Source of the DNA: an uncultured Victivallales bacterium
GTDB lineage: Bacteria > Verrucomicrobiota > Kiritimatiellia > UBA8416
NCBI GenBank assembly: GCA_964472315.1
Contig: CAYYJS010000016.1
Span: forward strand, 265-64,264
Length of the DNA: 64,000 nucleotides
Direction of reading: 5' to 3'
Shown: positions 36,374 to 62,804 of the stretch, in pieces
How the letters are laid out: every line of letters starts with the position of its first letter
Numbering within the stretch: the stretch's first letter is position 1
Notes under the pieces: generated by a model
Database searches by the model: none
The model's input: the letters and a program-made list of their open reading frames with translations, nothing else
Told to the model about the DNA's origin: nothing
Made by a program: the position numbers and the translations under genes

Positions 36374-36772
36374 ATGACCACCATGCATCACCTCGCTCAG
36401 ATTGCGGCGGTTGGCATCGGCGGCGGACTCGGCGCCATCGGCCGCCACGCCCTCGGCGGCTGGATCCTCCACCGATCCGGGGCCGGGCATTTTCCCCTCG
36501 GCACGCTCATCGTCAACATCGCGGGGTGTCTGGCGATCGGCCTCGTCGGCGGTCTCGCCGAGCGGCATCACGCCTTCACGCCGGCCATGCGCATTTTCCT
36601 GATCCCCGGCCTGCTGGGCGGGTTCACCACGTTTTCGGCGTTCGGCTTCGAGACCCTGTACCTTCTGCGGAGAGGCGACTGGTGGATGGCCGCCGTGTAT
36701 GTCATGGTCAGCGTATCCGTCGGCATCGGCGCCGTGGGCTTGGGGTTGAGCTGCGCCGGCGCGGACCGGTGA
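36374..36772 (+). CDS. crcB: Fluoride channel CrcB/FluC
   Basis: GGGLGAIGRH...PLGTLIVNIAGC..IG...GFTTFSAFGFE, about 132 aa with four TM helices. Confidence 0.85.
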   Translation: MTTMHHLAQIAAVGIGGGLGAIGRHALGGWILHRSGAGHFPLGTLIVNIAGCLAIGLVGGLAERHHAFTPAMRIFLIPGLLGGFTTFSAFGFETLYLLRRGDWWMAAVYVMVSVSVGIGAVGLGLSCAGADR

Positions 36773-36911: not shown

Positions 36912-37184
36912 ATGGCAAAGCGCAGCAACAAAAAGGGCGGCAAGCGTAAATCGGTGGTCACCATTCTGGCGGCGCGGTTGCACGCGTGGCGCAAGCGCCA
37001 GGGAGTCCCGCTGAAGCACGTGGCGCAGGACCTGGGTGTGTCCGTGTCCGTGATCAGCCAGTGGGAGCGCGGATTGCGTTTCCCCTCCGCCCGCAATATC
37101 GACAACCTCGCCGGGTACCTGAATATTCCGGTGTGCTGTCTGATGTTCGACGGCGAAGGGCCCTGCCCGCACCACGGCGCATAG
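36912..37184 (+). CDS. Small XRE-family helix-turn-helix regulator with Cys/His-rich tail
   Basis: LHAWRKRQGVPLKHVAQDLGVSVSVISQWERG is an HTH_3 pattern. The C-terminus reads VCCLMFDGEGPCPHHGA. Confidence 0.75.
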   Translation: MAKRSNKKGGKRKSVVTILAARLHAWRKRQGVPLKHVAQDLGVSVSVISQWERGLRFPSARNIDNLAGYLNIPVCCLMFDGEGPCPHHGA

Positions 37185-37363: not shown

Positions 37364-40300
37364 CTATCGTCCCCGACGCGGGCGTCCTTCGCCGGGTTCC
37401 CGGTCGAGCTGTGCGCGCCGCTCGATGATCGAGATGCCGTTGACCGTCTCGATCCGGGGAAACCCGCGGAGCAAGCCTTGCCGGACCAATTCCTCGTCAA
37501 CCCAGAGATGCTCGATCGGACTCCCCTGCAGGGGCGACAGGTCCGTCACCTTGCTTCCAACGCAGGCGAACGACGTCAGCGGCGCGCCGCGCAGTGGCTC
37601 CAGGTCCGACACGCGGGTACGGCAGATGTTGACGGACGACAACGATATGCCTTTGAGCGGCGTCAGACTGGATACGGACGTGTCGTCGATGTTGAGCACG
37701 TGTAACGGCAAACCGCGGCAGAAATCGAGATCCGACAGTTCCGTGCCGGAGAGATTCAGATGCCGCAACGGTTGGTTCCGCAGCGGCGCGAAGTCGGCAA
37801 TGGACGTTCCGGAAGCCTCGAACCGCGTCAACGACATCCCCTTCACGGCCGACAGCTCGCGTACCTTCGTTCCATTGATCAGCAGCGTCGACATGGCACG
37901 CGAACCGATACTGTCGAGACTGCGGATCGGAGTGTCGCTGACGTCGAGCCACTCGACTTTCGGCGCCTGCTGCAGAAACGAGAAATCGGCGACGCGCGAT
38001 CCCCGCACGTCCACGTACCGCAACGGCATGCCGAGGACGGGGCGCATGTTACTCACGTAGCTCCCGGCAATGTTGAGGTGCTCCACGGGCATGCCGCCCA
38101 AGGGGGCAAGGTCAAGCACCTTGGTATCCGCGCAAGTCAGCGCCTTCAGCATCATGCCGCGCAGGGGAGACAGATCCCTGACCTCGGTGTTCGACACGTC
38201 AAGCGACGTGAGCGGCATGCCCTGCAGGCACCGCAGTTCATTGACGCGACAATCGCGCACGCGCACCGTGCTCAGCGGCATGCCGCGCAACGGCAGCAGG
38301 TCCCGGAGCCGACCCCGTTCGTTCCTGTTTGGCGGCTCGTAGTGGAACTCCCGCAACCCGGTCATCGCGGCCACCGGCGCGATCGTTTCCACTTCGCCAT
38401 CGCGGATCGTCAGACCGATACAGACCCCGTCTTCCATGCGGATCTCGAAGGATTCCGGATCGGCACGCGTGTTCATTTCGCCCAGCAACTTCAGCGCCTT
38501 GTCCACATCGCCGCGGGCGCTCGCGATGTCTTTGCCCAACAACGGCCTCGAAACGGTTGCGGGCGGGGTAGCGTCCGCGGTGCCGTCCACCTCGACCGGC
38601 GCCGGCACCGGTGCGGCGGCTGGCGCCGCGCCAAGGGCCGCGACGATATCGCCAGCCTCGCTCGCAAACCGCGTCGCACCGTGTGCGCGTACGTACGCGA
38701 CGATGGATTCATCCACGCGCGCCTTGAGCGCGGGGTCAATCGGGCGACCGCGAACCGTGGACAGCCAGACATCATGGTCGTAGGCGCCGACGCCGTACCC
38801 GAAACTGGCCAGCAAGGCCCCAAGCGCCTGTCGCGCATCCGTCTCGGCACGGTCGGCGCTGGCCTGCTCCAGACCCGCGCAAAGACGGTCGGCAAGCGCG
38901 GGGTGCGTCATCGCGAAGTACTTGCGCGCGTGATCGAACGCCTTCGATTCGTAGGCCATGATCCCTTTGGCCAGCGCCACGTCCTGTTCGGCATCCGCGC
39001 CCATGCGCAGCAAGCGCTCGCGTGCCGACAGGTCCGCCACCCCGAAACTGATCACGCTGTGCACATAACGCTCGCTGCTGATGAAGTGCTTGCATGTGAC
39101 GCGCCCCCCGGCCACGCTGTCGATCGCCACGCGTTTGACACCGGACGCGAACTGCACGTCGACCATCTGCCCACGCTGGTTGTCGAACGACTGCAGGATG
39201 CGCTCGTCCACGCGCATCGCGCCCTGAAGCACGGCGAGGACCTCGCGAAGCACCGGCACGGATGGGTGCGTGGCCTGGCTGTCGATGAGGCGCGCGACAA
39301 GCAGCACACCGCCGGGAAGATCGCCGCCAAGCACGCCGGCCACCACCCCGTCGTATGTCTCTTCGATCGCCGCGTCGACTTCGTTCTGTCGCCGTGCGCG
39401 GTCATCGGCCACCGCCCGCGCATCCGCGAGCAACTTGTCCGCCATCTGGCGGCGCAGGGAAAGCGTCTCGTCCGCCAGTTGTCCTTGGTACCCCCGGATG
39501 TGTTCGGCGGCCGCCTCGATGCGCCCCTGCGCGACCATCGGAGCAACCTCCGATTTGAGCCGTTCGATGATCTGGCGACGGACTTCCTGACGACGGTCGG
39601 ACAGCCGCGTAGCGGCCGTCTGCGCCATCAGCGAGTATTTCGTGCCGGCGGCGTCGGTAACGACACGCCGGTAGTTCACGGCGGCTGTGCTCAGGTCGTC
39701 CGGATGCTCGGTCTCCCATCGCTGCGCATACTCGAACATCTCACGCGCCCTGCGGTCGCCCGGCGACTCGACCGGCGCCCGTGCCACCGGTTGTGTGGTG
39801 GTCGTCACGGACGGCGGGGACGCGGCCCGCCGATGCGACATCGCCACAAGATTCCAAATACCGATGAGAACCGCCACACCGATGCCAGCCACCAGCGCCA
39901 CCTTGACCATCGGGGTGCGCGTCGCCGCGGCGGTCTCCCGCAGGCGGCGGGCCCGGTTGTAGTCTGAAACCAGGCGACGCGCACTGCGCCGGATGGTGCT
40001 GCTGCCTTCCGGCAACGGCTTTCCGACCGGCGTCAGCCCCTTGCGCACTCGCGCCAGATCGGCTTTGACCGCTTCCCAACTCTCCTGCCGGAGGTCGCGC
40101 TGTTTCGCCAACATACGCTCGATCAGCCAACATAACCCCTTCGACAGCCCCGGCACCGTATCCAAGGGGTCGGGCACCGTTTCCGTGGTCTGCATTTCGA
40201 TCGTCGTCTCGGCGTCCTTGCCCTGAAACAGCATCTCGCCCGTGACCAGGTGGTACAACGTGGCACCCAGCGAGTAGATGTCGGCGCGACAGTCGAGATC

Positions 40301-40861
40301 GACAAGTCCCTCGGCCTGTTCGGGCGACATGTAGGCCGGCGTACCCATGATGTCCTGCAAGGCATCGGCATCCTGCATGGCGCTGATCGTCCGGGCCAAC
40401 CCCAGATCCGCCACCTTCACGGATCCGTCTTCATCGACCATGATGTTGTCGGGCTTGATGTCGCAGTGGATGATGCGCTCGCGGTCCCAGGCATAGCCCA
40501 GGGCATCCGCGACGGATTCACAGACGAGCAGCGCCTCGCGCTCGGGAATCCGGCCCTTCCGCCGCACCCAGTCGCCGGTCGTGTAGCCGGCCACGTACTC
40601 CATGACGAAGTAATAGAGCCCGTTTTCGGCATTGGCATCGTATACCTGCACGATACCGGGATGCTTCAGTTTCGCGGCCGCGCGGGCCTCCGTCTGAAAC
40701 CGCGCGATATCCTCCGCGTCGCCGGCCAACTTGGACGAGAGCACCTTGATGGCCACGATACGGTCCAGCGACACCTGTCGCGCCTTCCAGACCGAGGCCA
40801 TGCCCCCTTCACCCAGTTTCGATAGGATGTCGAACCCGGTCAATTGTTCGGGATGACTCAT
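37364..40861 (-). CDS. Receptor-like Ser/Thr protein kinase: cytoplasmic Hanks kinase, one TM helix, long helical region, about 13 C-terminal leucine-rich repeats
   Basis: GEGGMASVWKA, VAIKVL, HCDIKPDNIMV, DLGLAR and GTPAYMSPEQ; TM VALVAGIGVAVLIGIWNLVAM; 21-residue repeats of the type L.PL.GMPL..L.v..T.V.D. Confidence 0.85.
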   Translation of the reverse strand: MSHPEQLTGFDILSKLGEGGMASVWKARQVSLDRIVAIKVLSSKLAGDAEDIARFQTEARAAAKLKHPGIVQVYDANAENGLYYFVMEYVAGYTTGDWVRRKGRIPEREALLVCESVADALGYAWDRERIIHCDIKPDNIMVDEDGSVKVADLGLARTISAMQDADALQDIMGTPAYMSPEQAEGLVDLDCRADIYSLGATLYHLVTGEMLFQGKDAETTIEMQTTETVPDPLDTVPGLSKGLCWLIERMLAKQRDLRQESWEAVKADLARVRKGLTPVGKPLPEGSSTIRRSARRLVSDYNRARRLRETAAATRTPMVKVALVAGIGVAVLIGIWNLVAMSHRRAASPPSVTTTTQPVARAPVESPGDRRAREMFEYAQRWETEHPDDLSTAAVNYRRVVTDAAGTKYSLMAQTAATRLSDRRQEVRRQIIERLKSEVAPMVAQGRIEAAAEHIRGYQGQLADETLSLRRQMADKLLADARAVADDRARRQNEVDAAIEETYDGVVAGVLGGDLPGGVLLVARLIDSQATHPSVPVLREVLAVLQGAMRVDERILQSFDNQRGQMVDVQFASGVKRVAIDSVAGGRVTCKHFISSERYVHSVISFGVADLSARERLLRMGADAEQDVALAKGIMAYESKAFDHARKYFAMTHPALADRLCAGLEQASADRAETDARQALGALLASFGYGVGAYDHDVWLSTVRGRPIDPALKARVDESIVAYVRAHGATRFASEAGDIVAALGAAPAAAPVPAPVEVDGTADATPPATVSRPLLGKDIASARGDVDKALKLLGEMNTRADPESFEIRMEDGVCIGLTIRDGEVETIAPVAAMTGLREFHYEPPNRNERGRLRDLLPLRGMPLSTVRVRDCRVNELRCLQGMPLTSLDVSNTEVRDLSPLRGMMLKALTCADTKVLDLAPLGGMPVEHLNIAGSYVSNMRPVLGMPLRYVDVRGSRVADFSFLQQAPKVEWLDVSDTPIRSLDSIGSRAMSTLLINGTKVRELSAVKGMSLTRFEASGTSIADFAPLRNQPLRHLNLSGTELSDLDFCRGLPLHVLNIDDTSVSSLTPLKGISLSSVNICRTRVSDLEPLRGAPLTSFACVGSKVTDLSPLQGSPIEHLWVDEELVRQGLLRGFPRIETVNGISIIERRAQLDREPGEGRPRRGR

Positions 40862-42111
40862 CGCCGGCACCCCGTACCGCCGCACGAAGGACACTCGGAC
40901 ACGCCACCGCCATGGCAATGGGGGCATGGCTTCCCACGGTATACGCCGGTCTTCGCGCACCGGGTACAATCGACCAGCCCCTGCCCGACGCAACGCGAAC
41001 ACGCTTTCGCCACGCCCGTCCCGCCGCAACCGCGACAGAGGATCCCGCCGACACCGTTGCATCGGTCGCACGCGATCAGGCCATCGCCGCCGCAAACCGT
41101 GCATTTCACCTTTCGGAGCAGCGCCTTCCCGCCAAGCTTACCCCCGGATTCCGTTTCAACCTCGCCGTTCCGGCAGTTCTTCGCGGTGCAGGCGACCCGC
41201 CCCTGTCCGCGGCAGGCTTCGCAATCGCAACGCCCGAACCCCTCACAATCGGAACACGGCACCCCCAAGGCCCGCTTCAATGCCACGGCATCCGTGACAG
41301 ACAACCGACCGGCGACAACGTCAGGCACCCAGGACAGACCCACCGGAACCCTGCCGCGCGCCTGCTGCAACACGCGATACCGATTGCCGGCCTGACCTCG
41401 CGCAAATCTCAACTCGTCGATCGTCAACTGCCCGCGTACGACCCCGCTGCCTTCGCATCGCCGACAACGACCGGCGGCGACCTGCACGGTCTCCCGCGAA
41501 CTGATGGATCCGACATCGAGCACGCCTTTGCCGGATCCCTGACACTGCGGGCACTTGCGCTCGGTCGATCGTCCCCCTCGCTCACAAGCGTCGATCAGTT
41601 GCATGATCGCTCCCGCCCGTTCGTCACGGCGCGTCCCCGGCGTCGTCAACAGGTTTAGCGCCAGTGCGTTACGGCAGAACAACCGCGCGATATCCACGTC
41701 ACCGTCCTGGAACCGCATACGGGCCTGCTCGATCTCGCCGGAGACGGTGTCGTCCGGGATGCGTCCGTCCGCCACATCCAGCTTGTCTTCCACTCCGGAC
41801 ACGGTGCCCGTATCCGGCGTCGCCGGCGCGCGATCCGGAAGCGCAGCCTCGCAATGCGAACACCTCGCCCGCCCCGCCGGGTTCTCATGGCCGCAACTCC
41901 CGCAGATCGTCGGCGAAGCCCCGGCCATGAGCACCACGGCCGCAACCGCAACCAGCCCGACCAGCAGACGTTTCGCATGCGCGCTCGGGTATGAACCCGC
42001 TTCGGCGTCAATGGGTTTCACAAACGCCCTCCAAAACCGTACCGAAATCGCAATAGTCGCGCCTACGGATTCGTTATATCTGATAAGAACACGCATACGG
42101 GGGCTGATCAT
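40858..42111 (-). CDS. Membrane-anchored cysteine-rich protein with zinc-ribbon and ten DnaJ-CR-type CxxCxGxG motifs
   Basis: TM LLVGLVAVAAVVLMAGA; CGSCGH..CSHC ribbon; then CPQCQGSG, CRRCEGSG, CSDCEGFG, CEACRGQG, CTVCGGDG, CDRCNGVG, CRGCGGTG, CSRCVGQG, CPHCHGGG, CPSCGGTG. ATGA overlap with the kinase start. Confidence 0.7.
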   Translation of the reverse strand: MISPRMRVLIRYNESVGATIAISVRFWRAFVKPIDAEAGSYPSAHAKRLLVGLVAVAAVVLMAGASPTICGSCGHENPAGRARCSHCEAALPDRAPATPDTGTVSGVEDKLDVADGRIPDDTVSGEIEQARMRFQDGDVDIARLFCRNALALNLLTTPGTRRDERAGAIMQLIDACERGGRSTERKCPQCQGSGKGVLDVGSISSRETVQVAAGRCRRCEGSGVVRGQLTIDELRFARGQAGNRYRVLQQARGRVPVGLSWVPDVVAGRLSVTDAVALKRALGVPCSDCEGFGRCDCEACRGQGRVACTAKNCRNGEVETESGGKLGGKALLRKVKCTVCGGDGLIACDRCNGVGGILCRGCGGTGVAKACSRCVGQGLVDCTRCAKTGVYRGKPCPHCHGGGVSECPSCGGTGCRR

Positions 42112-42155: not shown

Positions 42156-42368
42156 ATGTATACGTATCGCCACATTCGGGGCAAGCTCGCATGCCGAATC
42201 CGACGTTTTTTCGCCCCTTGCGGAGGTCGTGACGGTCAAGCTATGATCGAATACATGGTCGCGGCGGTCATGCTGCTCATGGCCACCGTGATTCTCGCTC
42301 TCGTTCTTTATACCTTTCGAGAACACAGCGGGCGGGTGCTCGATCTCGCGGCATCCGAGTACCCATAA
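42156..42368 (+). CDS. Flp-family type IVb pilin (candidate)
   Basis: Leader ends ...GGRDG then QAMIEYMVAAVMLLMATVILALV, matching the Flp G/XXXXEY processing motif plus a hydrophobic stretch. The start codon is uncertain. Confidence 0.55.
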   Translation: MYTYRHIRGKLACRIRRFFAPCGGRDGQAMIEYMVAAVMLLMATVILALVLYTFREHSGRVLDLAASEYP

Positions 42369-42427
42369 CCGCGGCAACGGCGGAACGGAGAGAGAACGCA
42401 ACGGATACGACAGGAGGAGATGGAGCG

Positions 42428-42667
42428 ATGAACGCAAGACAGAGTCGGAAGAGCGGACAAACCATGGTCGAGTACATCATTATCGTCGTCATCATCGCCA
42501 TCGCGGCAATCGCGATTTTCGGTGTCTTCGGCGATACCATCCGGGCCAAGCTCGGCGGCGCGGTCACCGAGTTGGGCGGCGATGAAAGCGCACGCGATAC
42601 GGCGCTGAGCACAGGCTCCGCCGATGCGCTCAAGGACCTCGATGCCGAGGGTGGTCTGACTCCGTAG
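42428..42667 (+). CDS. Flp-family type IVb pilin
   Basis: MNARQSRKSG / QTMVEYIIIVVIIAIAAIAIFG has a short basic leader, the G/XXXXEY motif and a hydrophobic helix. AGGAGG lies upstream. Confidence 0.75.
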   Translation: MNARQSRKSGQTMVEYIIIVVIIAIAAIAIFGVFGDTIRAKLGGAVTELGGDESARDTALSTGSADALKDLDAEGGLTP

Positions 42668-42741
42668 CACGCGGACAGACCCTTAACCCCGGTTGCTCGC
42701 GTCGACGGGCACTCCGTAGAGGCGCCCGCATCGATACGCGG

Positions 42742-43416
42742 ATGGAGGCGGGTTTGCAGTCAGCCGGACTATTCTTACGGATCCGCGACCGGCAACCGGC
42801 CGGTACGCGGCAGTCGGGGCAGTCTCTCATCGAAGCCGCGCTGGCCGTGATGATGATCTGCCTGATCCTTTTCGGGCTGCTTCAGATTTCCCAGCTCTTC
42901 GCGGCCAAGGAAGTGCTCCACCATACCGCCGCGCGCGCGGCCCGCGCGAAAACCGTGGGCTTCAACGGGTTCATGGTCGCCAAGGCCGCCCGCATCGCCT
43001 CGATCCCGATCGCGGGCCGCATGCGCGAGCCGGCGTTCACGAACGAGGACCTCGCGTTGCGCGCCCTGGTGAGCGACCTTCGCCCGGGACAGCTCTGGGA
43101 TGCCGTGCTGTCCGACATGACCCCGTCCGGGCTGCAGTACGAGATCGAACGGGCACGTATCCCGGAGTACATGGGCGCCGAACACTGGTCCACGGCCCAC
43201 TGGGTTCTGGACTACGACGGCTGGGACTCGCTCAGCATCGGTTTCACGAGTTCCCCCGATCCCGACGACCCGATGCTGCACGTACGCGTGCGGCACGAGT
43301 TCGCGCTCTGGGTTCCCATGCACCGCACCTTCTACGATGCCGACACCGTCGAACTCGACGGCGAAACGCACATCGAAAACCATTACCCGCTTTACATCGA
43401 CGAGGAGTACTGGTGA
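42742..43416 (+). CDS. TadE-like pseudopilin
   Basis: SGQSLIEAALAVMMICLILFGLLQISQLF is a TadE N-terminal pattern. Confidence 0.65.
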   Translation: MEAGLQSAGLFLRIRDRQPAGTRQSGQSLIEAALAVMMICLILFGLLQISQLFAAKEVLHHTAARAARAKTVGFNGFMVAKAARIASIPIAGRMREPAFTNEDLALRALVSDLRPGQLWDAVLSDMTPSGLQYEIERARIPEYMGAEHWSTAHWVLDYDGWDSLSIGFTSSPDPDDPMLHVRVRHEFALWVPMHRTFYDADTVELDGETHIENHYPLYIDEEYW

Positions 43417-43420
43417 CCCG

Positions 43421-44863
43421 ATGAACGCCCCCCGCATGACCGCCGAGACCGTCCGCCGAGCCGCCCGCAAGGCCGGCCAGGTAATGGTGTTTTTCATCAT
43501 GGCCGTCGTCATCGTCACGTTCTTCGTTCTCTACAATTTCGATCTCCATAAGCTACTCCACGTCAAGGCCGTCAGCCAAAACGGCGGCGACGCGGCCGCC
43601 CTGATGGCGGCACGGTGGCAGGGCATCACGCTCAACCTCGTCGGCGACCTGAACATCATGCAGGCCCTCGCCTTGAGCGCGGGCGACCGCGATGCCGCCG
43701 ATGCGATCAACGGCATCCAGGCCCGCCTGGCCTACACGGGGCCCATGATCGCCCTCCAGGCGTCGCAACAGGCCGCCAAGAACAACGGCATCTTCGTCAA
43801 CGCCGAATTCAGCGATTACCTCGCCGAACACGCCCGCGCCGTACGCGAGGACTACACCGCCCCCGTCGGTCCCGGCGGCGAAATGCTGTTCCCGCCGCCC
43901 TGGGACGGCGCCTGGGACGACTACGCCGACATGCTCGATCTCGCCGCCGCCGACGGCATCGCCGCCGCTCCGGACAACATGCGGCTCTATACCGACAGCA
44001 CGGACGGCCATACACTCCTGCGCATCGATTTCTACGAAGCCATCGCCGGACGGAGCTGGTGCTGGTTCTACCACAACGAGCCGACCTTGCTCGAAGATTA
44101 CCGCAATTTCTTCCCCTGCTGGTGGACCGCGATCCCCGAACCGACCGACCGTTATTTCATCAACAGCGAGATTTACGGCGTCGGCCTGCGCAAGGTCGTG
44201 ACAAGTCTCGACCGCTTGATCGGCGATGCGGCGCGGATCAACCCCCTCGCCGTAGAACGCGGTTTCGCCGGCGCCGTCACGTCCACCGGCATGGCCGCCG
44301 AAGCCACCTGGTACTGCTACAGCGACAGCGTCTGGACCGACTGGGATGCCATGTCCACCGACGGCGAATGGCCGATGCCGCTCACCGGCCGGGTGCGGCC
44401 GCGGTATAACTACCTCGGCGCCGATGCCGCCGTGCGCGTCGAAGCCTCCACGGGGCGTCTGACACCGGGACCGCATGCCTCGCTGACCACCAACACGATC
44501 ACCTGGAGCGCGGCCGCCAAACCGTTTGGCGCCCTCGATGAAGAAACGCGCCCCGATGCGTTCGATCTCGTGCTGCCCGCCTTCCGCGACGTACGCCTGT
44601 TCCCCATCGACGCCTCGTCGGCGCCCGCCGGCGGCTCGTACAACCTGGACTGGCGCCGCCACATTGAACTGCACCTGCCGCTGTACATGGAGGGCGGTCC
44701 CGCCGCACTCCCCGCCTGCTGGTACTGCAACCAGTTGCGCACTTGGGAGAATATCGGTTTTCGCCTCGAAGGCGTCGATTGGCTGTCGCGCTACAGCGAC
44801 CGGTGCATCCCGCACGGCGGCGGCGGCGGCGGTCCCGGCGGCGGACGCAGGAGGGGGCATTGA
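43421..44863 (+). CDS. TadG-like (Tad_N) pilus assembly protein with Gly-rich C-terminus
   Basis: KAGQVMVFFIMAVVIVTFFVLYNFD is followed by a large Trp/Cys-containing domain ending HGGGGGGPGGGRRRGH. Confidence 0.55.
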   Translation: MNAPRMTAETVRRAARKAGQVMVFFIMAVVIVTFFVLYNFDLHKLLHVKAVSQNGGDAAALMAARWQGITLNLVGDLNIMQALALSAGDRDAADAINGIQARLAYTGPMIALQASQQAAKNNGIFVNAEFSDYLAEHARAVREDYTAPVGPGGEMLFPPPWDGAWDDYADMLDLAAADGIAAAPDNMRLYTDSTDGHTLLRIDFYEAIAGRSWCWFYHNEPTLLEDYRNFFPCWWTAIPEPTDRYFINSEIYGVGLRKVVTSLDRLIGDAARINPLAVERGFAGAVTSTGMAAEATWYCYSDSVWTDWDAMSTDGEWPMPLTGRVRPRYNYLGADAAVRVEASTGRLTPGPHASLTTNTITWSAAAKPFGALDEETRPDAFDLVLPAFRDVRLFPIDASSAPAGGSYNLDWRRHIELHLPLYMEGGPAALPACWYCNQLRTWENIGFRLEGVDWLSRYSDRCIPHGGGGGGPGGGRRRGH

Positions 44864-45381
44864 TGAACGCTTCACGGTCCGGTCAGGCCATGGTCGAACT
44901 CATTGTCGGCATGATCGTCATCCTGGCCTTGGTCGCCGGCATGCTGCAGGTGGCCTCGCTCACCCGCGCCCATACCGCGGTCATGGTCGAAGCCCGTGGC
45001 CGCGCCGGCGGCCTCGCCATGTCCGACGCCTTCATCACGGCCATTCCCGATTACATCGCCGATGTCGAGGTGGGCCCCGACGGCCGCTCCTATTCCCGCG
45101 ACGACACGCACACCGCCGCCAGTCTGGTCGATCTCGACAACGTCATCGTCACCCCCACCGCGCCCGCGGCGGGCGACTGGGCGTACCTCGACGCCGTTCC
45201 CGGCAACCGGGTTTCGGCGCTCCATCGCAGTCCCGCGCCCGTACTCGAATTCGGCCTCATCGGCACGGAGGAACACGCGGTCATCGCCCTGCTTCCCGCC
45301 GTGCGCACGCTGCTCTACGATGCCGAGGAAATCGAGGTCGAAGCCAAGGTGTGGATGACCTGGACACGCGGGATTTACTGA
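44863..45381 (+). CDS. TadE-like pseudopilin
   Basis: MNASRSGQAMVELIVGMIVILALVAGMLQVASL. Its ATG overlaps the upstream stop (TGATG). Confidence 0.65.
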   Translation: MNASRSGQAMVELIVGMIVILALVAGMLQVASLTRAHTAVMVEARGRAGGLAMSDAFITAIPDYIADVEVGPDGRSYSRDDTHTAASLVDLDNVIVTPTAPAAGDWAYLDAVPGNRVSALHRSPAPVLEFGLIGTEEHAVIALLPAVRTLLYDAEEIEVEAKVWMTWTRGIY

Positions 45382-46112
45382 TGAGCCGACGACCTTGCCC
45401 GCCACCCATCGCCCTCGCGGCGCTGCTCTGCCTCGTCGCCGCCGCACCGGCATCCGCCCGCGTCTTCGCGCGCTGGGGCAGTCACCGTCAACTCGCGGCC
45501 GCGATGACCGCGCTCGGCGCCCAGTCGGGCTACCAGGCCGAGGTTTCCATCAACGGTCACGATGGCGCCGCCCATGTGTTCCGCATGCCCGGTTCGGTCA
45601 CGGAAACCGTCGCCACGCTTGAGCGCCGCTTCGCCCCGATCCGCTTCGCGTACGATGGCGGGACCATGGCGATCGGCACCGCCGTCGTCGGACGCCTGCG
45701 CCAGTTCATGATCGTTCTGCGGACCGATCTCGCCGACCACTCGATCGTCATGACCGTGTCGGTCGACGGCCTCGGCGACGCCCCGCCCGAAAAGCCCGCG
45801 CGGCACCTGCTCGGACAGGTTCCCGCGTTCCCCGGCGGCGCCCCGACGTTCTTTGCCCACGACCGCGAGGCCGGCATGCGTCTGGCCGTGGCAACCACGT
45901 CATCCGCCCCCGAGGATGTCCAGCGATTCTACGCGCAAAGCCTCCCCGCGGACGGCTGGAAACCGGCGCTGCCGGCCGGCGCTGCCGGATCGCGCGACTT
46001 CCACGTCTACCTGAAAGATCGCGAGATCTGCGGCGTTTTCGCGTCCGCTTCGCCCGCCACCCGCGAGACACGGATAACGGTATTGCATAAGGAACCGGGA
46101 AGGGATAAGTAG
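45381..46112 (+). CDS. Hypothetical secreted protein inside the Tad locus
   Basis: Signal peptide MSRRPCPPPIALAALLCLVAAAPASA. No recognisable motif. Its start overlaps the upstream stop. Confidence 0.55.
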   Translation: MSRRPCPPPIALAALLCLVAAAPASARVFARWGSHRQLAAAMTALGAQSGYQAEVSINGHDGAAHVFRMPGSVTETVATLERRFAPIRFAYDGGTMAIGTAVVGRLRQFMIVLRTDLADHSIVMTVSVDGLGDAPPEKPARHLLGQVPAFPGGAPTFFAHDREAGMRLAVATTSSAPEDVQRFYAQSLPADGWKPALPAGAAGSRDFHVYLKDREICGVFASASPATRETRITVLHKEPGRDK

Positions 46113-46119
46113 TACCTCC

Positions 46120-46947
46120 ATGAAAGACAAGATCATCCCCGTCGTGTCGGTGGCTGTCGGCATCCTTGCGTTTGCCCTCACCATGCAGTATCTGCGCAGC
46201 CGCGAGGATGACCTTCAACGCCGCTGGCGCGAGTTGTACGCCGGGGCCGAAAAGGTCAAAGTCCTCTGCGCCGCGCACACGATCCCGCGCGGCACGGTCA
46301 TCGCCATGGACGATCTGGCCACGAAGTCGGTCTTCAAATCGGCCGTACGGCAGGACGTGCTGCTGCCGGAGGACCTGACCATGATCGTCGGCAAGAAATC
46401 GCTTTTCGAGATCACCGGCAAGGATCCCATTTTCTGGTCGGACATCGAGGGCGGCGCGCCGTCCCTCGGCGGGCTCTCATCCATCGTCACGCCGGGCATG
46501 CGCGCCATATCGCTCAGTGTCGGCGGCGCCGCGGCCGTCAGCGGCATGGTCCTGCCGAACGACCGCGTCGACGTCCTCGGCACGTTCTCCTTTCCGTCAA
46601 AAACCGCCGCGGGCGAAATGGAGACCGTCACCCTGACGGTGCTTCAGGATGTCACCGTCCTGGCGACGGGCCAGACCATGGCCAACGAACAGTACCTGCG
46701 CCAGCGCGACAACATACGCCGCTCGACAGGCTTCAATACGGTGACGCTCGAAGTCACCGCCAAGGAAGCCGAGTTGCTGGTGTTCACCGAACACATGAAG
46801 GGCGCGTTGACGCTGTCCCTGCGCAATCCCCGCGATGTCGATTGGAAACAGGACCTGCCGAGCGTGAACTTCCTGCACCTCCAGAACGAACTGCCCCAAC
46901 TGAATCTGGAACGGCAGCGCGATATTCGGCACAAGAAGGTCCGGTAA
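46120..46947 (+). CDS. cpaB: Flp pilus assembly protein CpaB/RcpC (SAF domain)
   Basis: N-terminal TM (IIPVVSVAVGILAFAL), a SAF-like segment (VLCAAHTIPRGTVI..DDL) and a C-terminal beta-rich RcpC-like region. Confidence 0.7.
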   Translation: MKDKIIPVVSVAVGILAFALTMQYLRSREDDLQRRWRELYAGAEKVKVLCAAHTIPRGTVIAMDDLATKSVFKSAVRQDVLLPEDLTMIVGKKSLFEITGKDPIFWSDIEGGAPSLGGLSSIVTPGMRAISLSVGGAAAVSGMVLPNDRVDVLGTFSFPSKTAAGEMETVTLTVLQDVTVLATGQTMANEQYLRQRDNIRRSTGFNTVTLEVTAKEAELLVFTEHMKGALTLSLRNPRDVDWKQDLPSVNFLHLQNELPQLNLERQRDIRHKKVR

Positions 46948-47012
46948 CGGACACCGAGGCGGTCCCCGCCGCGCCGCCCGGCAACGCCCGCCCGACGAAA
47001 GGGTCAACTGGC

Positions 47013-48752
47013 ATGAGTGAATCGATCGCCTTGGAAGTCCGCCGACCCGGTCGCGAACCCCGTCGCTTCGAGATCGGCCCCGGCGTCTACACCGTCGGCA
47101 GCGACGACGACTGCCGCATCTGTCTCAGCCACGAATCCGTGGGCAGCCGTCACGCCATCGTCACCGTCCGCCCGGATACCTGCTGGCTGGAGGACCTCGG
47201 ATCCCCCGCCGGCACCAGCGTCGACGGCATTCCGGCGCGCGGGCGTACGGCCATACCGTCCGGCAGCGAGGTCCGCATGGGCGCCTACGTGCTCGTCTTT
47301 CACATGGAGGGGGTCCCCGCCGACATGTCGGCGACGGCGCCCGCCGCGCCCCCCCTCCCGCCTCCGGCGCCCGAGCAACCGCCAGCGCCACCCCCTCCGT
47401 CGCCCATCCTCACGCCGGTTCCGGCACGCGGCGCCGAGTCTTCGAGCGCCTCCCTGGATCCCGAAACCGTTCGCAAACGCTCCATCAAGCAACAGATCCA
47501 CCGGGAATTGGTCGAGCGGCTCGATATCCGGCGCCTCACGGCCTCGCGTGTGAACCCGGAGGAGCTGCGCGACAAGGTGCGCCGCACGCTTGAACAAATC
47601 GTACACGACGTCGCCGCCAAACTACCCCCCGGCATCCCCCCGCGGACCATCATCAAGGAGGTCTACGACGAGGCCCTCGGTCTAGGTCCGCTGGAGGATC
47701 TGCTCGCGGACGAAGCGGTCACCGAAATCATGGTCAACGGCCACGACCACGTTTTCGTCGAACGCAACGGCCGCATCGAACTGACCGGCCTGACGTTCAT
47801 GGACGACACGTCGGTGCTGGCCATCATCGAACGCATCGTCTCGCCCATCGGACGGCGCATCGACGAAAGCCAGCCCTACGTCGACGCCCGCCTGCCGGAC
47901 GGCTCGCGCGTGAATGCCATCATCCATCCGCTGTCGCTGGTCGGCCCCTGCATTACGATCCGGAAGTTTTCGAAGACGCCCTTCACCGACCGCGACCTCG
48001 TCCGCTTCGGCACCATGGCCGAGTCCTGCTGCGAGTTCATGAAGGTCTGTGTCCGCCTGCGCAAGAACGTCGTCGTTTCCGGCGGCACGGGGTCCGGCAA
48101 GACGACGCTGTTGAACGTCTTGAGCGGCTACCTGCCCCCCACCGACCGCATCGTGACCATCGAGGATGCCGCCGAGCTGCGCCTCGCGCAACCGCATGTC
48201 GTGCGCCTCGAGGCGCGCCAGCCCAACATCGAGGGCCGCGGCGCCATCACCATCCGCGATCTCGTGCGCAACGCGTTGCGCATGCGACCCGACCGCATCG
48301 TCGTCGGCGAATGCCGCGGCGGCGAGGCGCTCGATATGCTCCAGGCCATGAACACGGGACACGATGGCTCGCTCACCACCGTCCATGCCAACTCGCCGCG
48401 CGATGTCATCTCCCGTCTCGAAACGATGGTGCTCATGTCCGGCATGGATCTCCCCGTGCGCGCCATCCGCGAACAGGTGGCCGCGGCCGTCGACATCATC
48501 ATTCATGAGCAGCGTTTCAGCGACGGCTCCCGCAAGGTTCTCAAAGTCACCGAAGTGCTCGGACTGGAAGGCGATCAGATCGTCATGCAGGATATCTTCG
48601 AGTACCGCCAGACCAGCGTGGACGAGAAGGGCAAAGTGATCGGGCGCTTCATGCCGACCGGCGCCGTACCCACGTTCCTGGAGGATATCGAGACGCGCGG
48701 CATGACGATCGATCGACGCATGTTCGACCCGCGCCTGGCCACCGGAAACTGA
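47013..48752 (+). CDS. FHA domain fused to CpaF/TadA-type secretion ATPase
   Basis: N-terminus: YTVGSDDDCRICLSHESVGSRHAIV...LEDLGSPAGTSVDG (FHA-like). A Pro-rich linker follows. CpaF core has Walker A GGTGSGKTT and GHDGSLTTVHANS. Confidence 0.8.
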   Translation: MSESIALEVRRPGREPRRFEIGPGVYTVGSDDDCRICLSHESVGSRHAIVTVRPDTCWLEDLGSPAGTSVDGIPARGRTAIPSGSEVRMGAYVLVFHMEGVPADMSATAPAAPPLPPPAPEQPPAPPPPSPILTPVPARGAESSSASLDPETVRKRSIKQQIHRELVERLDIRRLTASRVNPEELRDKVRRTLEQIVHDVAAKLPPGIPPRTIIKEVYDEALGLGPLEDLLADEAVTEIMVNGHDHVFVERNGRIELTGLTFMDDTSVLAIIERIVSPIGRRIDESQPYVDARLPDGSRVNAIIHPLSLVGPCITIRKFSKTPFTDRDLVRFGTMAESCCEFMKVCVRLRKNVVVSGGTGSGKTTLLNVLSGYLPPTDRIVTIEDAAELRLAQPHVVRLEARQPNIEGRGAITIRDLVRNALRMRPDRIVVGECRGGEALDMLQAMNTGHDGSLTTVHANSPRDVISRLETMVLMSGMDLPVRAIREQVAAAVDIIIHEQRFSDGSRKVLKVTEVLGLEGDQIVMQDIFEYRQTSVDEKGKVIGRFMPTGAVPTFLEDIETRGMTIDRRMFDPRLATGN

Positions 48753-48755
48753 CCC

Positions 48756-49655
48756 ATGAGCATGATGCTGACAACCTTGCTTTTCTGGCTGGTCCCGACG
48801 CTGTTCATGGTCTGCTTCGCGGGGCTGACTTTCGTGCTCATGCGAGGACTGGCGGCCGGAGCCGAAGCCTACTCCGGCGAATACTCCGCGGATACCGCCC
48901 GGCAATTCGAGGACATCTTCCTCTTCGTGCCGCCGCGCCGGATCGCGGAAATCGGCTGGATGTGCTCGGCCGCCGCGTTCGCCCTCGTCTTTTTCCTCAC
49001 GGGCAGCCTCACGGACCGGCGCGGTTTCGGCGTGGGTCTGGTCCTCGGAGCGCTCGCGGCCGCCGGGATGCTGCAGATGCCCCGGTTGCTGCTCGTCACG
49101 CTCCGTCGCCGGCGTCTGCGCAAGTTCAACCTACAGCTCGTCGATACGCTCGTCAGCATGAGCAACGCGCTCAAGGCGGGCTTCAGCATCATGCAGTCGT
49201 TCGAGACCGTCACGCGGGACGGCGAAAACCCCATCGCCCAGGAGTTCGGCCTCTTCCTGCAACAGACGCGCGTCGGCGTCAGTTTTTCGGAAGCCATGGC
49301 GAACATGGAACGGCGTGTCGGCAGCGACGATCTGACCCTCGTCGTGCTCGCGATCGAAACCGCCCGCCAAACCGGCGGCAACCTGACGGAGATCTTCGAA
49401 CAGATCTCGGCCACCATCCGCGAACGCATGCGCATCGAGAACCGCATCCGCACGCTCACCGCCCAGGGCCGCCTGCAGGGCATTGTCGTCGGGTCCATGC
49501 CGCTGCTCATCGCGGGTGTGCTGACGGTGCTCGATCCTGACATGATGTTGCCTTTCCTGCACTCGGTGCCCGGCGCCGCGATCATCGCGCTCGTCATCGT
49601 GATGATCGCCTGCGGCGGCGTGATCATCCGGAAAATCATCGCCATCGACGTCTGA
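48756..49655 (+). CDS. tadB: TadB-like inner-membrane platform protein (T2SSF domain)
   Basis: TM-rich, with LVDTLVSMSNALKAGFSIMQSFE and ARQTGGNLTEIFE motifs. Confidence 0.75.
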   Translation: MSMMLTTLLFWLVPTLFMVCFAGLTFVLMRGLAAGAEAYSGEYSADTARQFEDIFLFVPPRRIAEIGWMCSAAAFALVFFLTGSLTDRRGFGVGLVLGALAAAGMLQMPRLLLVTLRRRRLRKFNLQLVDTLVSMSNALKAGFSIMQSFETVTRDGENPIAQEFGLFLQQTRVGVSFSEAMANMERRVGSDDLTLVVLAIETARQTGGNLTEIFEQISATIRERMRIENRIRTLTAQGRLQGIVVGSMPLLIAGVLTVLDPDMMLPFLHSVPGAAIIALVIVMIACGGVIIRKIIAIDV

Positions 49656-49662
49656 TCCAACC

Positions 49663-50586
49663 ATGAACACACATGCGATTATTCAGTCTCTGCTCGCCGT
49701 GTGCTGGGCCCTGGCCGCGGCCGGCGCAACCTGGCATGTGTCGCGCATCGCCCGCCAGATCACGTACGTCACGCTCGCCGACGGCCGGCGGCAGGAACGC
49801 GCCATTCCGATCCTGTTCCGTCTGCTGCTCCCGCTGTCGCCCAACTTGGCGCCGCTCTGGCGGCGGCCGGCATTCGCGAAGACACGCACGGAGGTGGACG
49901 CGCGGCTCGTCGCGGGCGGCTACGAAGGCTTGTTGTCGGCCGACGAGATGCTGGCCATCCGCGTGCTCGTACCCCTCGTGTACGGCACGCTCTGGGTCAT
50001 CTTCATGCGGGGCGCCGTCACGGCCAGTCACGTCGCGTTCCTCGCCAAGGGGCAGTTCGCCCTCTACGCGATCGGCGTCCTGTGGCTGGCGCTCTACCCC
50101 TTCACCTGGCTCCGACAGGCCATCGCCGCGCGGCACCGTGTCGTCCAGCGCGCGCTCCCGTTCGTCCTGGACCTGTTGACGCTCTCCGTCGAGGCCGGCA
50201 TGGACTTCATGTCGGCTCTGCAACGCAACATCGACCGACGCCGCATCGACGCCCTGAGCGAGGAACTCATTCGTGTCGTGCGCGAGATCCAACTCGGCGC
50301 CACCCGCCGGCAGGCCCTCCGCGGCATGTCGCGACGCGTCAACCTCGCGGACCTGCGATCGGTGGTGAACGCCCTCTGCCAAGCCGATGAACTCGGCGTC
50401 AGCATCGGGTCCATCCTCCGCATCCAGGCCGACCAGATGCGCCTGCGCCGCTTCGAACGCGCCGAGAAGCTCGCCAATGAGGCCCCGGTGAAGATGCTGT
50501 TTCCGCTGATGGTCTTCATTTTCCCCGCCGTGTTCCTCGTCCTGCTCGGCCCCGTCATCTACCGCATGGTCCAGCAAGGCTTCTAA
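49663..50586 (+). CDS. tadC: TadC-like inner-membrane platform protein (T2SSF domain)
   Basis: LPFVLDLLTLSVEAGMDFMSALQ...ADELGVSIGSILRIQADQMR. Confidence 0.75.
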   Translation: MNTHAIIQSLLAVCWALAAAGATWHVSRIARQITYVTLADGRRQERAIPILFRLLLPLSPNLAPLWRRPAFAKTRTEVDARLVAGGYEGLLSADEMLAIRVLVPLVYGTLWVIFMRGAVTASHVAFLAKGQFALYAIGVLWLALYPFTWLRQAIAARHRVVQRALPFVLDLLTLSVEAGMDFMSALQRNIDRRRIDALSEELIRVVREIQLGATRRQALRGMSRRVNLADLRSVVNALCQADELGVSIGSILRIQADQMRLRRFERAEKLANEAPVKMLFPLMVFIFPAVFLVLLGPVIYRMVQQGF

Positions 50587-61617: not shown

Positions 61618-62088
61618 GGCCGGCATATGGGCCAGTTGAGCGTGTGGATTCAGTGGGGCGACGGCCGGATGGGCGGTGTTTGTGGCCTGGTTTCAACGTC
61701 CGCGCGTGGCCGCACGGCGCCGGAGACGTGTTTGCAACCGCTTTTCGGCAGACTCCGTCCGCAGAGGAGCAAGCGTCTTGAATGATCGGCGGGGAACGAT
61801 CTATCAGCCGCTGGGCGCGATCGGCGTCAGACGCAGGTCGCGCATGGTGAACAGCCCCGGCGTGGCCGCGTTCCGCAACTTGCGCGGCCCGCTGCGGCGT
61901 TTGAGCCCGAATTGGTCACGGTGCGCCAAGGTAGTAAGACAACCCCGATCCCCGCACCCGTGCGATCCTCATGCCAACCTCCTATGCCCTGCCCCGAAAC
62001 CACCCCGCATATCCATCTCTCACGACAACCCGCACCCTATCCCCGCCCACGCCAACGCGCAAGCTAATAAATGGTGTGTCCCTTATCG
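61590..62088. repeat. 12-bp inverted repeat pair bracketing a 0.5-kb high-GC non-coding segment (candidate MITE-like element or IS relic)
   Basis: CGATAAGGGACA (61590-61601) and its reverse complement TGTCCCTTATCG (62077-62088). The interior is about 65% GC; the left flank is about 45% GC. Confidence 0.4.
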
Positions 62089-62190
62089 CTTCTCAGCCGA
62101 TCAACAGGGGGACGGGTACGCTGGACGTTACCGTCGATATTGACCGCCCGAGCCATTCACGGCGGACCGGGCGGTCTCGTAAGTAGCAAG

Positions 62191-62790
62191 TCACTGTAAG
62201 AACTTGTTGGTGAAGACTCCCAGGGCCTCACTGATGTTGCTTTGGTTCTGTGAAGACACGAAGAAGTTCGAGATAGACAGATGGTCTGGATCAAACAGCA
62301 CAACCGTGGTCTCGTTCGTGAGTACCAGGCTGCATAGATCAAGGTCGTTGCTTGCCGTGTGCCACAGATCGACACTGATCGTATCGAGTTGTAGCCCGGC
62401 ACCGAACCGCAGGCAACTATGTGAAGTCCGGTTACTGAAGCCACCAGCCGTGATTTCCGCCGACAGATCGTTCGTGGATTCCGCAGCACATCGACTTGAT
62501 GTCATCCCGCGCAAGATCGAGTCCTTGAACGTATACCCATAGCCTTCCGGCAAATCGGCATCGGGCACAGTTTCATACATCGTGGTCTGATTCGTCGAAC
62601 AAGCCCCAAAACCTGCGGGCACCTGTACGACAGATGGGCGATTAGTTTGAACAGTGCCGAGGCTCATGCCCAGGGCGACGTTGGTGGGAAAGCGCGACCA
62701 AACGTTGGTCTCCGCAGTGGCTATGCCACAGAACAACAGAGCATATCCAATAGCAGCGCGGCTCACGATCAGGGCCACATTTGTTTTCAT
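62191..62790 (-). CDS. Hypothetical secreted protein (low-GC island)
   Basis: Signal peptide MKTNVALIVSRAAIGYALLFCGIATA, Ser/Thr/Asn-rich, four Cys. Codon usage is visibly less GC-biased than the core genes. Confidence 0.55.
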   Translation of the reverse strand: MKTNVALIVSRAAIGYALLFCGIATAETNVWSRFPTNVALGMSLGTVQTNRPSVVQVPAGFGACSTNQTTMYETVPDADLPEGYGYTFKDSILRGMTSSRCAAESTNDLSAEITAGGFSNRTSHSCLRFGAGLQLDTISVDLWHTASNDLDLCSLVLTNETTVVLFDPDHLSISNFFVSSQNQSNISEALGVFTNKFLQ

Positions 62791-62804
62791 GTGATTCACA
62801 CTCC

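Follow-up and report, generated by a model that had tools for sequence, protein, structure and literature searches.

A predicted exported zinc-finger protein and its partner Hanks-type kinase encoded beside a Tad/Flp pilus operon in an uncultured Victivallales bacterium

A stretch of 64,000 nucleotides (nt) from an uncultured Victivallales bacterium (GenBank assembly GCA_964472315.1, contig CAYYJS010000016.1, positions 265 to 64,264 of the forward strand), which will be referred to as the window, encodes on its minus strand a cysteine-rich (Cys-rich) protein with ten CxxCxGxG motifs, directly followed by a Ser/Thr kinase of the Hanks type carrying leucine-rich repeats (LRRs). Comparative analyses demonstrated that the Cys-rich gene is followed by a kinase gene in most loci of a large protein family, and that in the branch to which the window belongs the pair is located head to head with a Tad/Flp pilus operon. 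The locus represents a conserved unit with three parts, in which the genes of a zinc-finger protein predicted to be exported and of a kinase dedicated to it adjoin a Tad operon. An earlier reading of the same DNA, which will be referred to as the original prediction, had not recognised the pairing as a described module, and indeed no description of a conserved Cys-rich/kinase pairing was found in the literature searched. We tentatively propose that the Cys-rich protein serves the kinase and the Tad machine from the periplasm, as an accessory or as an input protein.

Conservation of the gene pair and of its pilus context

The two genes and their junction are located as follows.

40858..42021, minus strand: Cys-rich gene, 387 amino acids (aa) from the GTG at 42021 (family hidden Markov model (HMM), E = 1.8e-113)
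37364..40861, minus strand: kinase gene, whose 1165-aa product is a Hanks Ser/Thr kinase of the non-RD type, the ectodomain being C-terminal
40858-40861, minus strand: ATGA stop/start overlap, in which the Cys-rich gene ends (TGA) and the kinase gene begins (ATG)

Across the junction the minus strand reads GCGATGAGT. The overlap, present exactly as the original prediction had described it, would imply translational coupling of the two genes. The mechanically delimited open reading frame (ORF) of the Cys-rich gene is longer (40858..42111, minus strand, 417 aa) and begins with an ATG at 42111. The gene nevertheless probably starts at the GTG at 42021, which is residue 31 of this ORF, since a GGAGG is located 8 nt 5′ of the GTG, a promoter-like element (TTGACG-16-TATGAT, 42134-42107) overlaps the longer ORF, and both the gene-caller product P0001 and the alignment of homologues begin at this position.

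The extent of the family was determined by an exhaustive search of representative proteins; word-indexed searches gave just 5 and 6 members. At E ≤ 1e-3 the exhaustive search yielded 481 representative proteins, and at the stricter limit of E ≤ 1e-30 it yielded 152. The 152 clusters at 50% identity are nearly all 350-410 aa in length and match over the full length. According to the original prediction, the idea of a novel pairing would have lost its ground if the Cys-rich protein simply belonged to a well-annotated family; the protein matched no Pfam or NCBIfam family above cut-off, and its database relatives bear only the name "hypothetical protein". By these searches, the Cys-rich proteins form a large unnamed family which is widespread in metagenomes and is covered by no annotated family.

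Metagenome contigs were scanned with a fixed-spacing Cys/Gly DNA pattern, which matches 132 of 135 full-length members and whose matches outside the family were TGC microsatellites. The loci were analyzed with purpose-built HMMs, and 67 strong loci with at least 300 nt downstream were counted. A Hanks kinase gene was located directly downstream in 56 of these 67 loci, and 49 of the 56 pairs overlap by 4 nt (ATGA, GTGA or TTGA). Likewise, in four of four close homologues the kinase gene follows immediately 3′. Conservation of the two genes as neighbours, which the original prediction had proposed to examine, was thus clearly observed. Judged from their catalytic signature (HCD in 47, DLG in 45, SPE in 41 and VAIK in all of 49 kinases), the partner kinases form one subfamily.

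The architecture of the partner kinases is variable. Among the 38 that are complete, 21 are soluble proteins of ~300 aa with no transmembrane (TM) segment, 6 (329-359 aa) are tail-anchored by a C-terminal TM helix only, 7 (484-694 aa) contain a TM helix followed by an ectodomain referred to as "mid", and 4 (925-1185 aa) contain a TM helix, "mid" and LRRs, the window kinase being the fifth of this last type. Since LRRs are confined to these 4 of 38 complete kinases and the window kinase, the LRR domain is, on this distribution, a late and clade-specific addition.

Divergent from the Cys-rich gene, the plus strand of the window carries the genes of a Tad-like pilus system, assigned from Pfam matches where a family is named.

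42156-42368 and 42428-42667, plus strand: two Flp-type pilin genes, with the G/xxxxEY-type motifs GQAMIEY and GQTMVEY
42742..50586, plus strand: rest of the Tad-like operon, comprising the following genes
42742-43416, plus strand: TadE
43337-44863, plus strand: TadG-like gene
44743-45381, plus strand: pseudopilin-like gene, no family match
about 45300-46112, plus strand: exported protein with a signal peptide, no family match
46120-46947, plus strand: RcpC/CpaB
about 47013-48752, plus strand: CpaF ATPase fused to an FHA-like domain (FHA-type N-terminus, 47013-47321)
48756-49655, plus strand: TadB
49663-50586, plus strand: TadC

Flp pilins, TadE/G, RcpC/CpaB, CpaF and TadB/TadC, by which a Tad system is recognised, are all present. 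A Pfam scan of 42156-50586 detected no secretin (RcpA/CpaC), CpaE/TadZ or prepilin peptidase, which could be encoded elsewhere in the genome. Collinear loci likewise showed no matches for secretin, TadZ and peptidase, and contain the two family-less ORFs as well. All 16 of 16 Tad-linked loci have the same divergent order, with the Cys-rich gene on one side and Flp1, Flp2, TadE, TadG ... RcpC, CpaF, TadB and TadC on the other, and three further loci with no kinase gene are collinear with the window Tad operon. The original prediction had suggested looking for co-occurrence with Tad loci, and the gene order turned out to be identical and divergent in every Tad-linked locus. One of these loci derives from a metagenome-assembled genome of an uncultured Victivallales (phylum Lentisphaerota, Planctomycetes-Verrucomicrobia-Chlamydiae (PVC) group). 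When the intergenic region between the divergent genes was searched for DNA motifs common to the loci, nothing emerged apart from the Flp coding motif and a 10-mer which the window does not contain.

When the Cys-rich proteins are arranged in a neighbour-joining tree, all Tad-linked loci group in a single clade with two branches. The first comprises loci with ectodomain-bearing kinases, including the window; in the second, its sister, the Cys-rich gene is still located head to head with Flp/Tad genes and no kinase gene is present. Outside this clade, no Tad genes were found within flanks of up to 10 kb in the soluble-kinase clade (0 of 12) and the tail-anchored-kinase clade (0 of 3). The soluble-kinase clade (loci L009, L010, L011, L065 and similar ones) has a different conserved context, an operon in which the genes of a PAS histidine kinase and of an NtrC-type sigma-54 activator lie upstream of the pair of Cys-rich protein and 300-aa kinase, and DUF192 lies downstream.

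The Cys-rich protein and its predicted export

The Cys-rich product contains 32 Cys and 13 CxxC pairs; its CxxCxGxG motifs number exactly 10 and lie at positions 187, 216, 286, 297, 337, 348, 359, 371, 396 and 407 of the 417-aa ORF. Among the window ORFs of at least 100 aa, the DnaJ encoded at 11155-12333 has four such motifs and all others, the Cys-rich ORF aside, have at most one. The motif counts of both proteins and the CxxC..CxxC ribbon ahead of the motifs are as given in the original prediction. The predicted parts, numbered along the 417-aa ORF, are the following.

41917..42021, minus strand: predicted signal peptide (residues 31-65), with a basic n-region AHAKR and the h-region LLVGLVAVAAVVLM
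41851..41904, minus strand: zinc ribbon CGSCGHENPAGRARCSHC (residues 70-87), CxxC-x10-CxxC
41578..41754, minus strand: three-helix bundle (residues 120-178) with a conserved RNAxALN motif
40870..41553, minus strand: DnaJ/BSD2-like zinc-finger modules (residues 187-414), comprising 10 CxxCxGxG, one CxxCxxxG and one CxxxxC

An AlphaFold2 (AF2) model calculated with the family alignment reached a mean predicted local distance difference test score (pLDDT) of 90.4 and a predicted template modelling score (pTM) of 0.74. It shows, in this order, an N-terminal helix, the ribbon, a disordered linker (residues 88-119, pLDDT < 50), the three-helix bundle, and beta-hairpin zinc modules with an alpha/beta insert at residues 230-283. 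The bundle helices (90-105, 109-123 and 130-148 in the numbering of the 387-aa protein) have block-mean pLDDT values of 92-98, and N148, A149 and A151 are invariant among homologues. In an alignment of 61 sequences, 28 Cys are invariant, namely all four Cys of the ribbon, 12 CxxC pairs and one CxxxxC. This number would give 7 predicted Cys4 sites, and the protein presumably binds zinc.

Foldseek searches against the PDB with the model gave no global match, none at E ≤ 1e-3, and local matches only, to BSD2, DnaJA2 and anti-TRAP. A sequence profile search of the PDB pointed to the same group of proteins, with BSD2 at 4e-6, the DnaJ cysteine-rich (CR) domain at 2e-4 and anti-TRAP at 3e-3, and it revealed a resemblance of the ribbon to ArnA-type ribbons. 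The Pfam matches remained weak: Zn_Ribbon_1 scored 17 bits against a cut-off of 25, and DnaJ_CXXCXGXG (PF00684) scored 16 bits (E = 0.014), below its gathering threshold of 32.7, the precomputed PF00684 matches on homologues being merely "faint". Neither a J domain nor any other domain of type I Hsp40 proteins was detected in the Pfam scan. Because of the local and profile similarity to BSD2, DnaJ and anti-TRAP on the one hand and the sub-threshold Pfam scores on the other, the Cys-rich protein is, as judged by these comparisons, built from DnaJ-type zinc-finger modules yet stands outside the Pfam DnaJ CR family. It shares the CxxCxGxG hairpin motifs with DnaJ CR, BSD2 and anti-TRAP but differs from DnaJ in having 10-11 tandem motifs with a period of 11-12 residues instead of 4, in lacking a J domain, and in possessing a signal peptide, a ribbon and a helical bundle.

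A domain-by-domain comparison of Cys-rich conservation with kinase type gave no discriminating signal except for the apparent absence of one module. The Cys-rich proteins of the tail-anchored-kinase clade (L052, L053, L057, L104 and L115) are shorter (~332-345 aa) and appear to be without the first zinc module (module A, window residues 179-229).

The location of the Cys-rich protein was assessed from the N-termini of the family. A Sec-like N-terminus is present in 132 of 154 members, with the first ribbon Cys well inside the protein (median position 28); the n-region contains on average 2.3 K/R compared to 0.2 D/E and is followed by an uncharged stretch, while positions -5 and -4, counted from the first ribbon Cys, are rich in A/G. 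In the window protein, a cleavage-type site (AGA|SP) is located 4 residues ahead of this Cys. The N-terminal hydrophobic stretch therefore resembles a cleavable signal peptide of the Sec type more than a TM anchor, and the protein is predicted to be exported and cleaved. Several members carry instead twin-arginine (Tat) signals of the RRxFL type (SRRAFLL, DRRRFLW, DRRSVLL) with basic c-regions. The Tat-signal members that were looked up are all of the kinase-less, Tad-adjacent type (L131-L135, L101 clade). The Tat pathway exports folded, cofactor-loaded proteins. Such signals would imply export of an already folded, probably zinc-loaded Cys-rich protein, and they fit a zinc-bound protein acting outside the cytoplasm. 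The original prediction had placed the Cys-rich domain outside the membrane behind a basic N-terminus and one TM helix; the outside location and the basic N-terminus agree with the Sec-like and Tat signals, whereas the stable anchor gives way to the signal-peptide pattern seen across the family.

Domain organisation of the partner kinase

The kinase of the window is divided into the following parts.

40067..40831, minus strand: kinase catalytic domain (residues 11-265), Pkinase PF00069, E = 2.6e-49, 168 bits against a cut-off of 31.7
39992..40012, minus strand: post-kinase motif P-E-G-S-S-T-I (residues 284-290)
39839..39901, minus strand: single TM helix VALVAGIGVAVLIGIWNLVAM (residues 321-341), hydropathy score 2.41
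38597..39838, minus strand: "mid" ectodomain (residues 342-755), mostly helical with a small beta region
37424..38359, minus strand: LRR domain (residues 835-1146), with an irregular first repeat, 12 regular repeats and a C-terminal cap

By its motifs, GEGGMASV at 17, VAIK at 36, HCDIKPDN at 132, DLG at 152 and SPE at 179, the kinase is catalytically complete and of the non-RD (HCD) Hanks type, so that the active-looking kinase of the original prediction holds for the remaining catalytic motifs as well as for the three named there (HCD, DLG and SPE). The NCBIfam model NF033483 for PknB/Stk1 PASTA kinases scored 281.7 bits against a cut-off of 450 and matched the kinase domain only; no PASTA repeat was found in the window kinase in the Pfam and NCBIfam scans. 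Behind the catalytic domain, a P-x-G-x-S-T-[IVM] motif recurs in the TM-bearing partner kinases, and soluble kinases terminate in a similar G-A-S-S-L. In the window kinase this motif (PEGSSTI) is a candidate phospho-acceptor, possibly an autophosphorylation or docking site.

The position of the TM helix is kept in every homologue with an ectodomain. In the best explanation of the predicted topology, the catalytic domain is cytoplasmic and the C-terminal part lies outside. A weak hydrophobic stretch at residues 505-523 was considered as a second TM helix and rejected, as it contains an Asp and is not conserved in locus L001. The "mid" ectodomain is common to 15 homologous kinases; it had no Pfam match even at E ≤ 10 and no relatives in a word-indexed homologue search, and a single-sequence AF2 prediction (pLDDT 49.8) was unusable as a fold. 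The LRR domain was recognised by LRR_4 (PF12799; residues 761-1165, 44.5 bits against a cut-off of 27) and is weakly similar to internalins. Repeat segmentation placed 12 regular LRRs at residues 862-1114, each of 20-23 and mostly 21 residues, which together with the irregular first repeat corresponds to the about 13 LRRs of 21 residues that had been predicted to follow a single TM helix. A small gene for an XRE-type helix-turn-helix (HTH) regulator (36912-37184, plus strand) runs convergent to the 3′ terminus of the kinase gene, a position at which locus L001 does not conserve it.

Possible roles of the pair and related systems

The conservation of the pair, the single kinase subfamily, the export signals, the confident AF2 model, the client-binding-like modules and the Tad synteny lead us to favour, with a confidence somewhat short of even, a periplasmic role in which the Cys-rich protein is an accessory to, or an input for, the kinase and the Tad machine. 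A two-gene operon located head to head with the Tad/Flp pilus operon would give rise to the Cys-rich protein and, in a fixed ratio to it through the ATGA overlap, the kinase. Exported to the periplasm via its N-terminal signal peptide, the Cys-rich protein would fold into a zinc ribbon, a flexible linker, a three-helix bundle and a DnaJ/BSD2-type hairpin array with ~7 predicted Cys4 sites. The kinase would expose its "mid" domain and ~13 LRRs outside and keep its catalytic domain inside. The zinc-finger protein might thus act as a protein-binding accessory or input factor and, together with the kinase and the Tad machine, regulate or aid the deployment of pili; the proposal presumes that the partners touch and that the pilus is the output. 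It is supported by the tree of the Cys-rich proteins, in which the clade whose kinases bear ectodomains is also the one linked to Tad.

Several observations argue against this proposal. Altogether 27 of the 38 complete partner kinases (21 soluble, 6 tail-anchored) have no extracytoplasmic part, so that contact between ectodomains cannot be a mechanism common to the family. The sister clade keeps the Cys-rich gene by Tad genes with no kinase gene, which argues for a kinase-independent role of the Cys-rich protein. No PP2C phosphatase was found among the flanking genes scanned. Furthermore, as read from alignments, the FHA-like domain of CpaF is without the canonical phosphothreonine (pThr)-binding residues, which are the Arg of GR, the Ser of SxxH and the Asn of NG. 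In an alignment of the window domain with GarA, GR is replaced by GS and N by A, and a Gly occupies the position of the GarA Ser, with a Ser one residue later. In eight further Tad-linked loci the GR arginine and the NG asparagine were never present and the Ser position was variable. A phospho-relay from the kinase to the FHA-fused CpaF, considered as mechanism, was downgraded because of this degenerate pocket: with Arg and Asn, and in part Ser, replaced, a canonical pThr-FHA relay is not supported. The domain may have a non-phospho-binding FHA fold like that of YscD or EssC.

The most serious competitor, although we regard it as unlikely, is a Cys-rich protein that works as periplasmic assembly chaperone, holdase or thiol-oxidoreductase for envelope machines, here the Tad system, with the kinase merely co-expressed, after the model of BSD2 or of the thylakoid proteins PSA2, LQY1 and CYO1. 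These plant proteins have disulfide-isomerase activity. The only detectable relatives of the Cys-rich protein are indeed client-binding zinc-finger modules (BSD2 at 4e-6, DnaJ CR and anti-TRAP), the Flp/Tad synteny persists in the kinase-less clade, Tat-exported members included, and all Cys-rich domains are similarly conserved whatever the kinase architecture. Nevertheless, a generic chaperone does not account for the translational coupling of 84% of the family to one kinase subfamily, no Tad genes were found in the flanks of the soluble- and tail-anchored-kinase clades (0/12 and 0/3), and the mature Flp pilins of the window contain no Cys. A cytoplasmic zinc-finger array on an uncleaved anchor, scaffolding or regulating the kinase, would suit the fact that most partner kinases are soluble yet translationally coupled. 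Cys4 zinc sites are typical of cytoplasmic proteins, that is, of a reducing environment. This arrangement is nonetheless highly improbable: the basic n-region and the acidic flank after the hydrophobic segment favour an N-in/C-out orientation, A/G-rich, AxA-like positions lie 4-5 residues ahead of the ribbon, and several members have textbook Tat signals (SRRAFLL, DRRRFLW).

The strict form of the original prediction, in which the LRR ectodomain and the Cys-rich protein constitute a ligand-sensing receptor and co-receptor outside the membrane, seems to us rather improbable. In the window clade both parts are predicted to be extracytoplasmic, the two proteins would be made in a fixed ratio owing to the ATGA overlap, and the kinase is non-RD. 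Plant pattern-recognition receptor kinases are non-RD as well. For this clade the arrangement may stand, and direct contact of the two ectodomains is possible there; for the family as a whole it fails, as 21 of 38 kinases are without a TM segment and the sister clade is without a kinase. Moreover, LRRs occur in only 4 of 38 complete kinases and the window kinase, orthologues such as L007 and L023, which have no LRRs, keep both the Cys-rich partner and the Tad locus, and the domain order is inverted compared to plant receptor-like kinases (RLKs). Equally improbable in our view is a multi-Zn(Cys)4 sensor or client-binding co-receptor, maybe redox- or metal-sensitive, that physically engages the non-RD kinase and the Tad machine; the locus would then encode a bacterial receptor-kinase/co-receptor pair by which pilus deployment is gated. 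An anti-phage defence kinase of the PD-T4-6/Stk2 type, with the Cys-rich protein as sensor or effector, is scarcely credible: the PADLOC models for PD-T4-6 reach up to 257 bits on the kinase, but they span the generic kinase domain only (residues 8-278) and PknB-type models score as high, the Cys-rich protein had no PADLOC match, and the surroundings that are conserved are those of a pilus operon or of a PAS-kinase/NtrC operon and not of a defence island.

For the favoured role as accessory or input protein, the closest analogy and precedent would be the control of type VI secretion (T6SS), in which TagR or RtkS, located in the periplasm, attach to the periplasmic domain of the Hanks kinase PpkA and activate the kinase through it (PMC6082577). 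Here as there, a membrane-bound Hanks kinase with a predicted periplasmic domain and an exported accessory protein are found beside an envelope nanomachine. The window locus differs from the T6SS threonine-phosphorylation pathway, whose FHA protein is Fha1, in several points: the Cys-rich protein is not homologous to TagR or RtkS, a PppA-type phosphatase was not seen in the vicinity, the ATPase carries the FHA-like domain as a fusion that is without the canonical pThr residues, and the machine is a Tad pilus. The module of the window is accordingly of a known kind, a Hanks kinase with an exported accessory protein at an envelope machine, while the Cys-rich family itself is new. For the soluble kinases, which are paired with an exported protein in most of the Cys-rich family, a parallel is offered by GlnH-GlnX-PknG of actinobacteria, where the gene of an exported sensor shares its operon with that of a soluble Hanks kinase (PMC6069109, PMC9769921). 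This precedent indicates that an exported protein and a soluble kinase can be a signalling unit. It differs in that the system needs the multi-TM protein GlnX, whereas no conserved GlnX-like multi-TM transducer adjoins the soluble-kinase members here, and in that GlnH is a solute-binding and not a zinc-finger protein.

The Tad operon itself resembles systems with an FHA-fused, "class III" CpaF, a type that also occurs in the Myxococcus Kil system (PMC12019362, PMC8460266). The systems share Flp pilins, TadE/G, RcpC, TadB/C and a CpaF with an N-terminal FHA-type domain, and in the passages of these two papers on FHA and kinases neither a Cys-rich partner nor an adjacent Hanks kinase is mentioned; the window locus differs further in having no recognisable secretin, CpaE/TadZ or prepilin peptidase and a degenerate FHA pocket. 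A Hanks kinase, an FHA domain and a zinc ribbon are also assembled around a type-IV filament in the archaellum network of Sulfolobus, where the Hanks kinases ArnC/D and the zinc-ribbon/FHA protein ArnA regulate the filament machine (PMC5300886). The ribbon of the Cys-rich protein matches that of ArnA, but the similarity is confined to the ribbon and all Arn components are cytoplasmic. Extracellular LRRs, a single TM helix and a non-RD kinase are reminiscent of plant LRR-RLKs, by analogy only. Here the kinase domain is N-terminal (11-265), followed by the TM helix (321-341) and C-terminal LRRs (835-1146), the LRRs are by their distribution a late, clade-specific addition, and the Cys-rich partner has neither a kinase nor an LRR domain, unlike the plant co-receptor, which is itself an LRR kinase.

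Both the signal input to bacterial Hanks kinases and the post-translational control of Tad systems are largely open questions. Under the improbable reading as a multi-Zn(Cys)4 sensor or co-receptor, the family would define a path of signalling not recognised before, which leads from an exported zinc-finger protein to Hanks kinases dedicated to it, many of which are soluble. As kinase input, the Cys-rich protein would constitute a new class of extracytoplasmic sensor; as an assembly factor, it would be, as far as known, a rare case of an exported bacterial protein that corresponds to the DnaJ-like zinc-finger chaperones of chloroplasts.

Two further features of the window were noted. A CrcB fluoride-channel gene is located at 36374-36772 (plus strand), and an Rfam scan of the whole 64 kb at gathering thresholds detected no fluoride riboswitch and no other RNA family. 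At the end of the window, the GC content of positions 62001-64000 was 0.56 compared to ~0.65 in the remainder.

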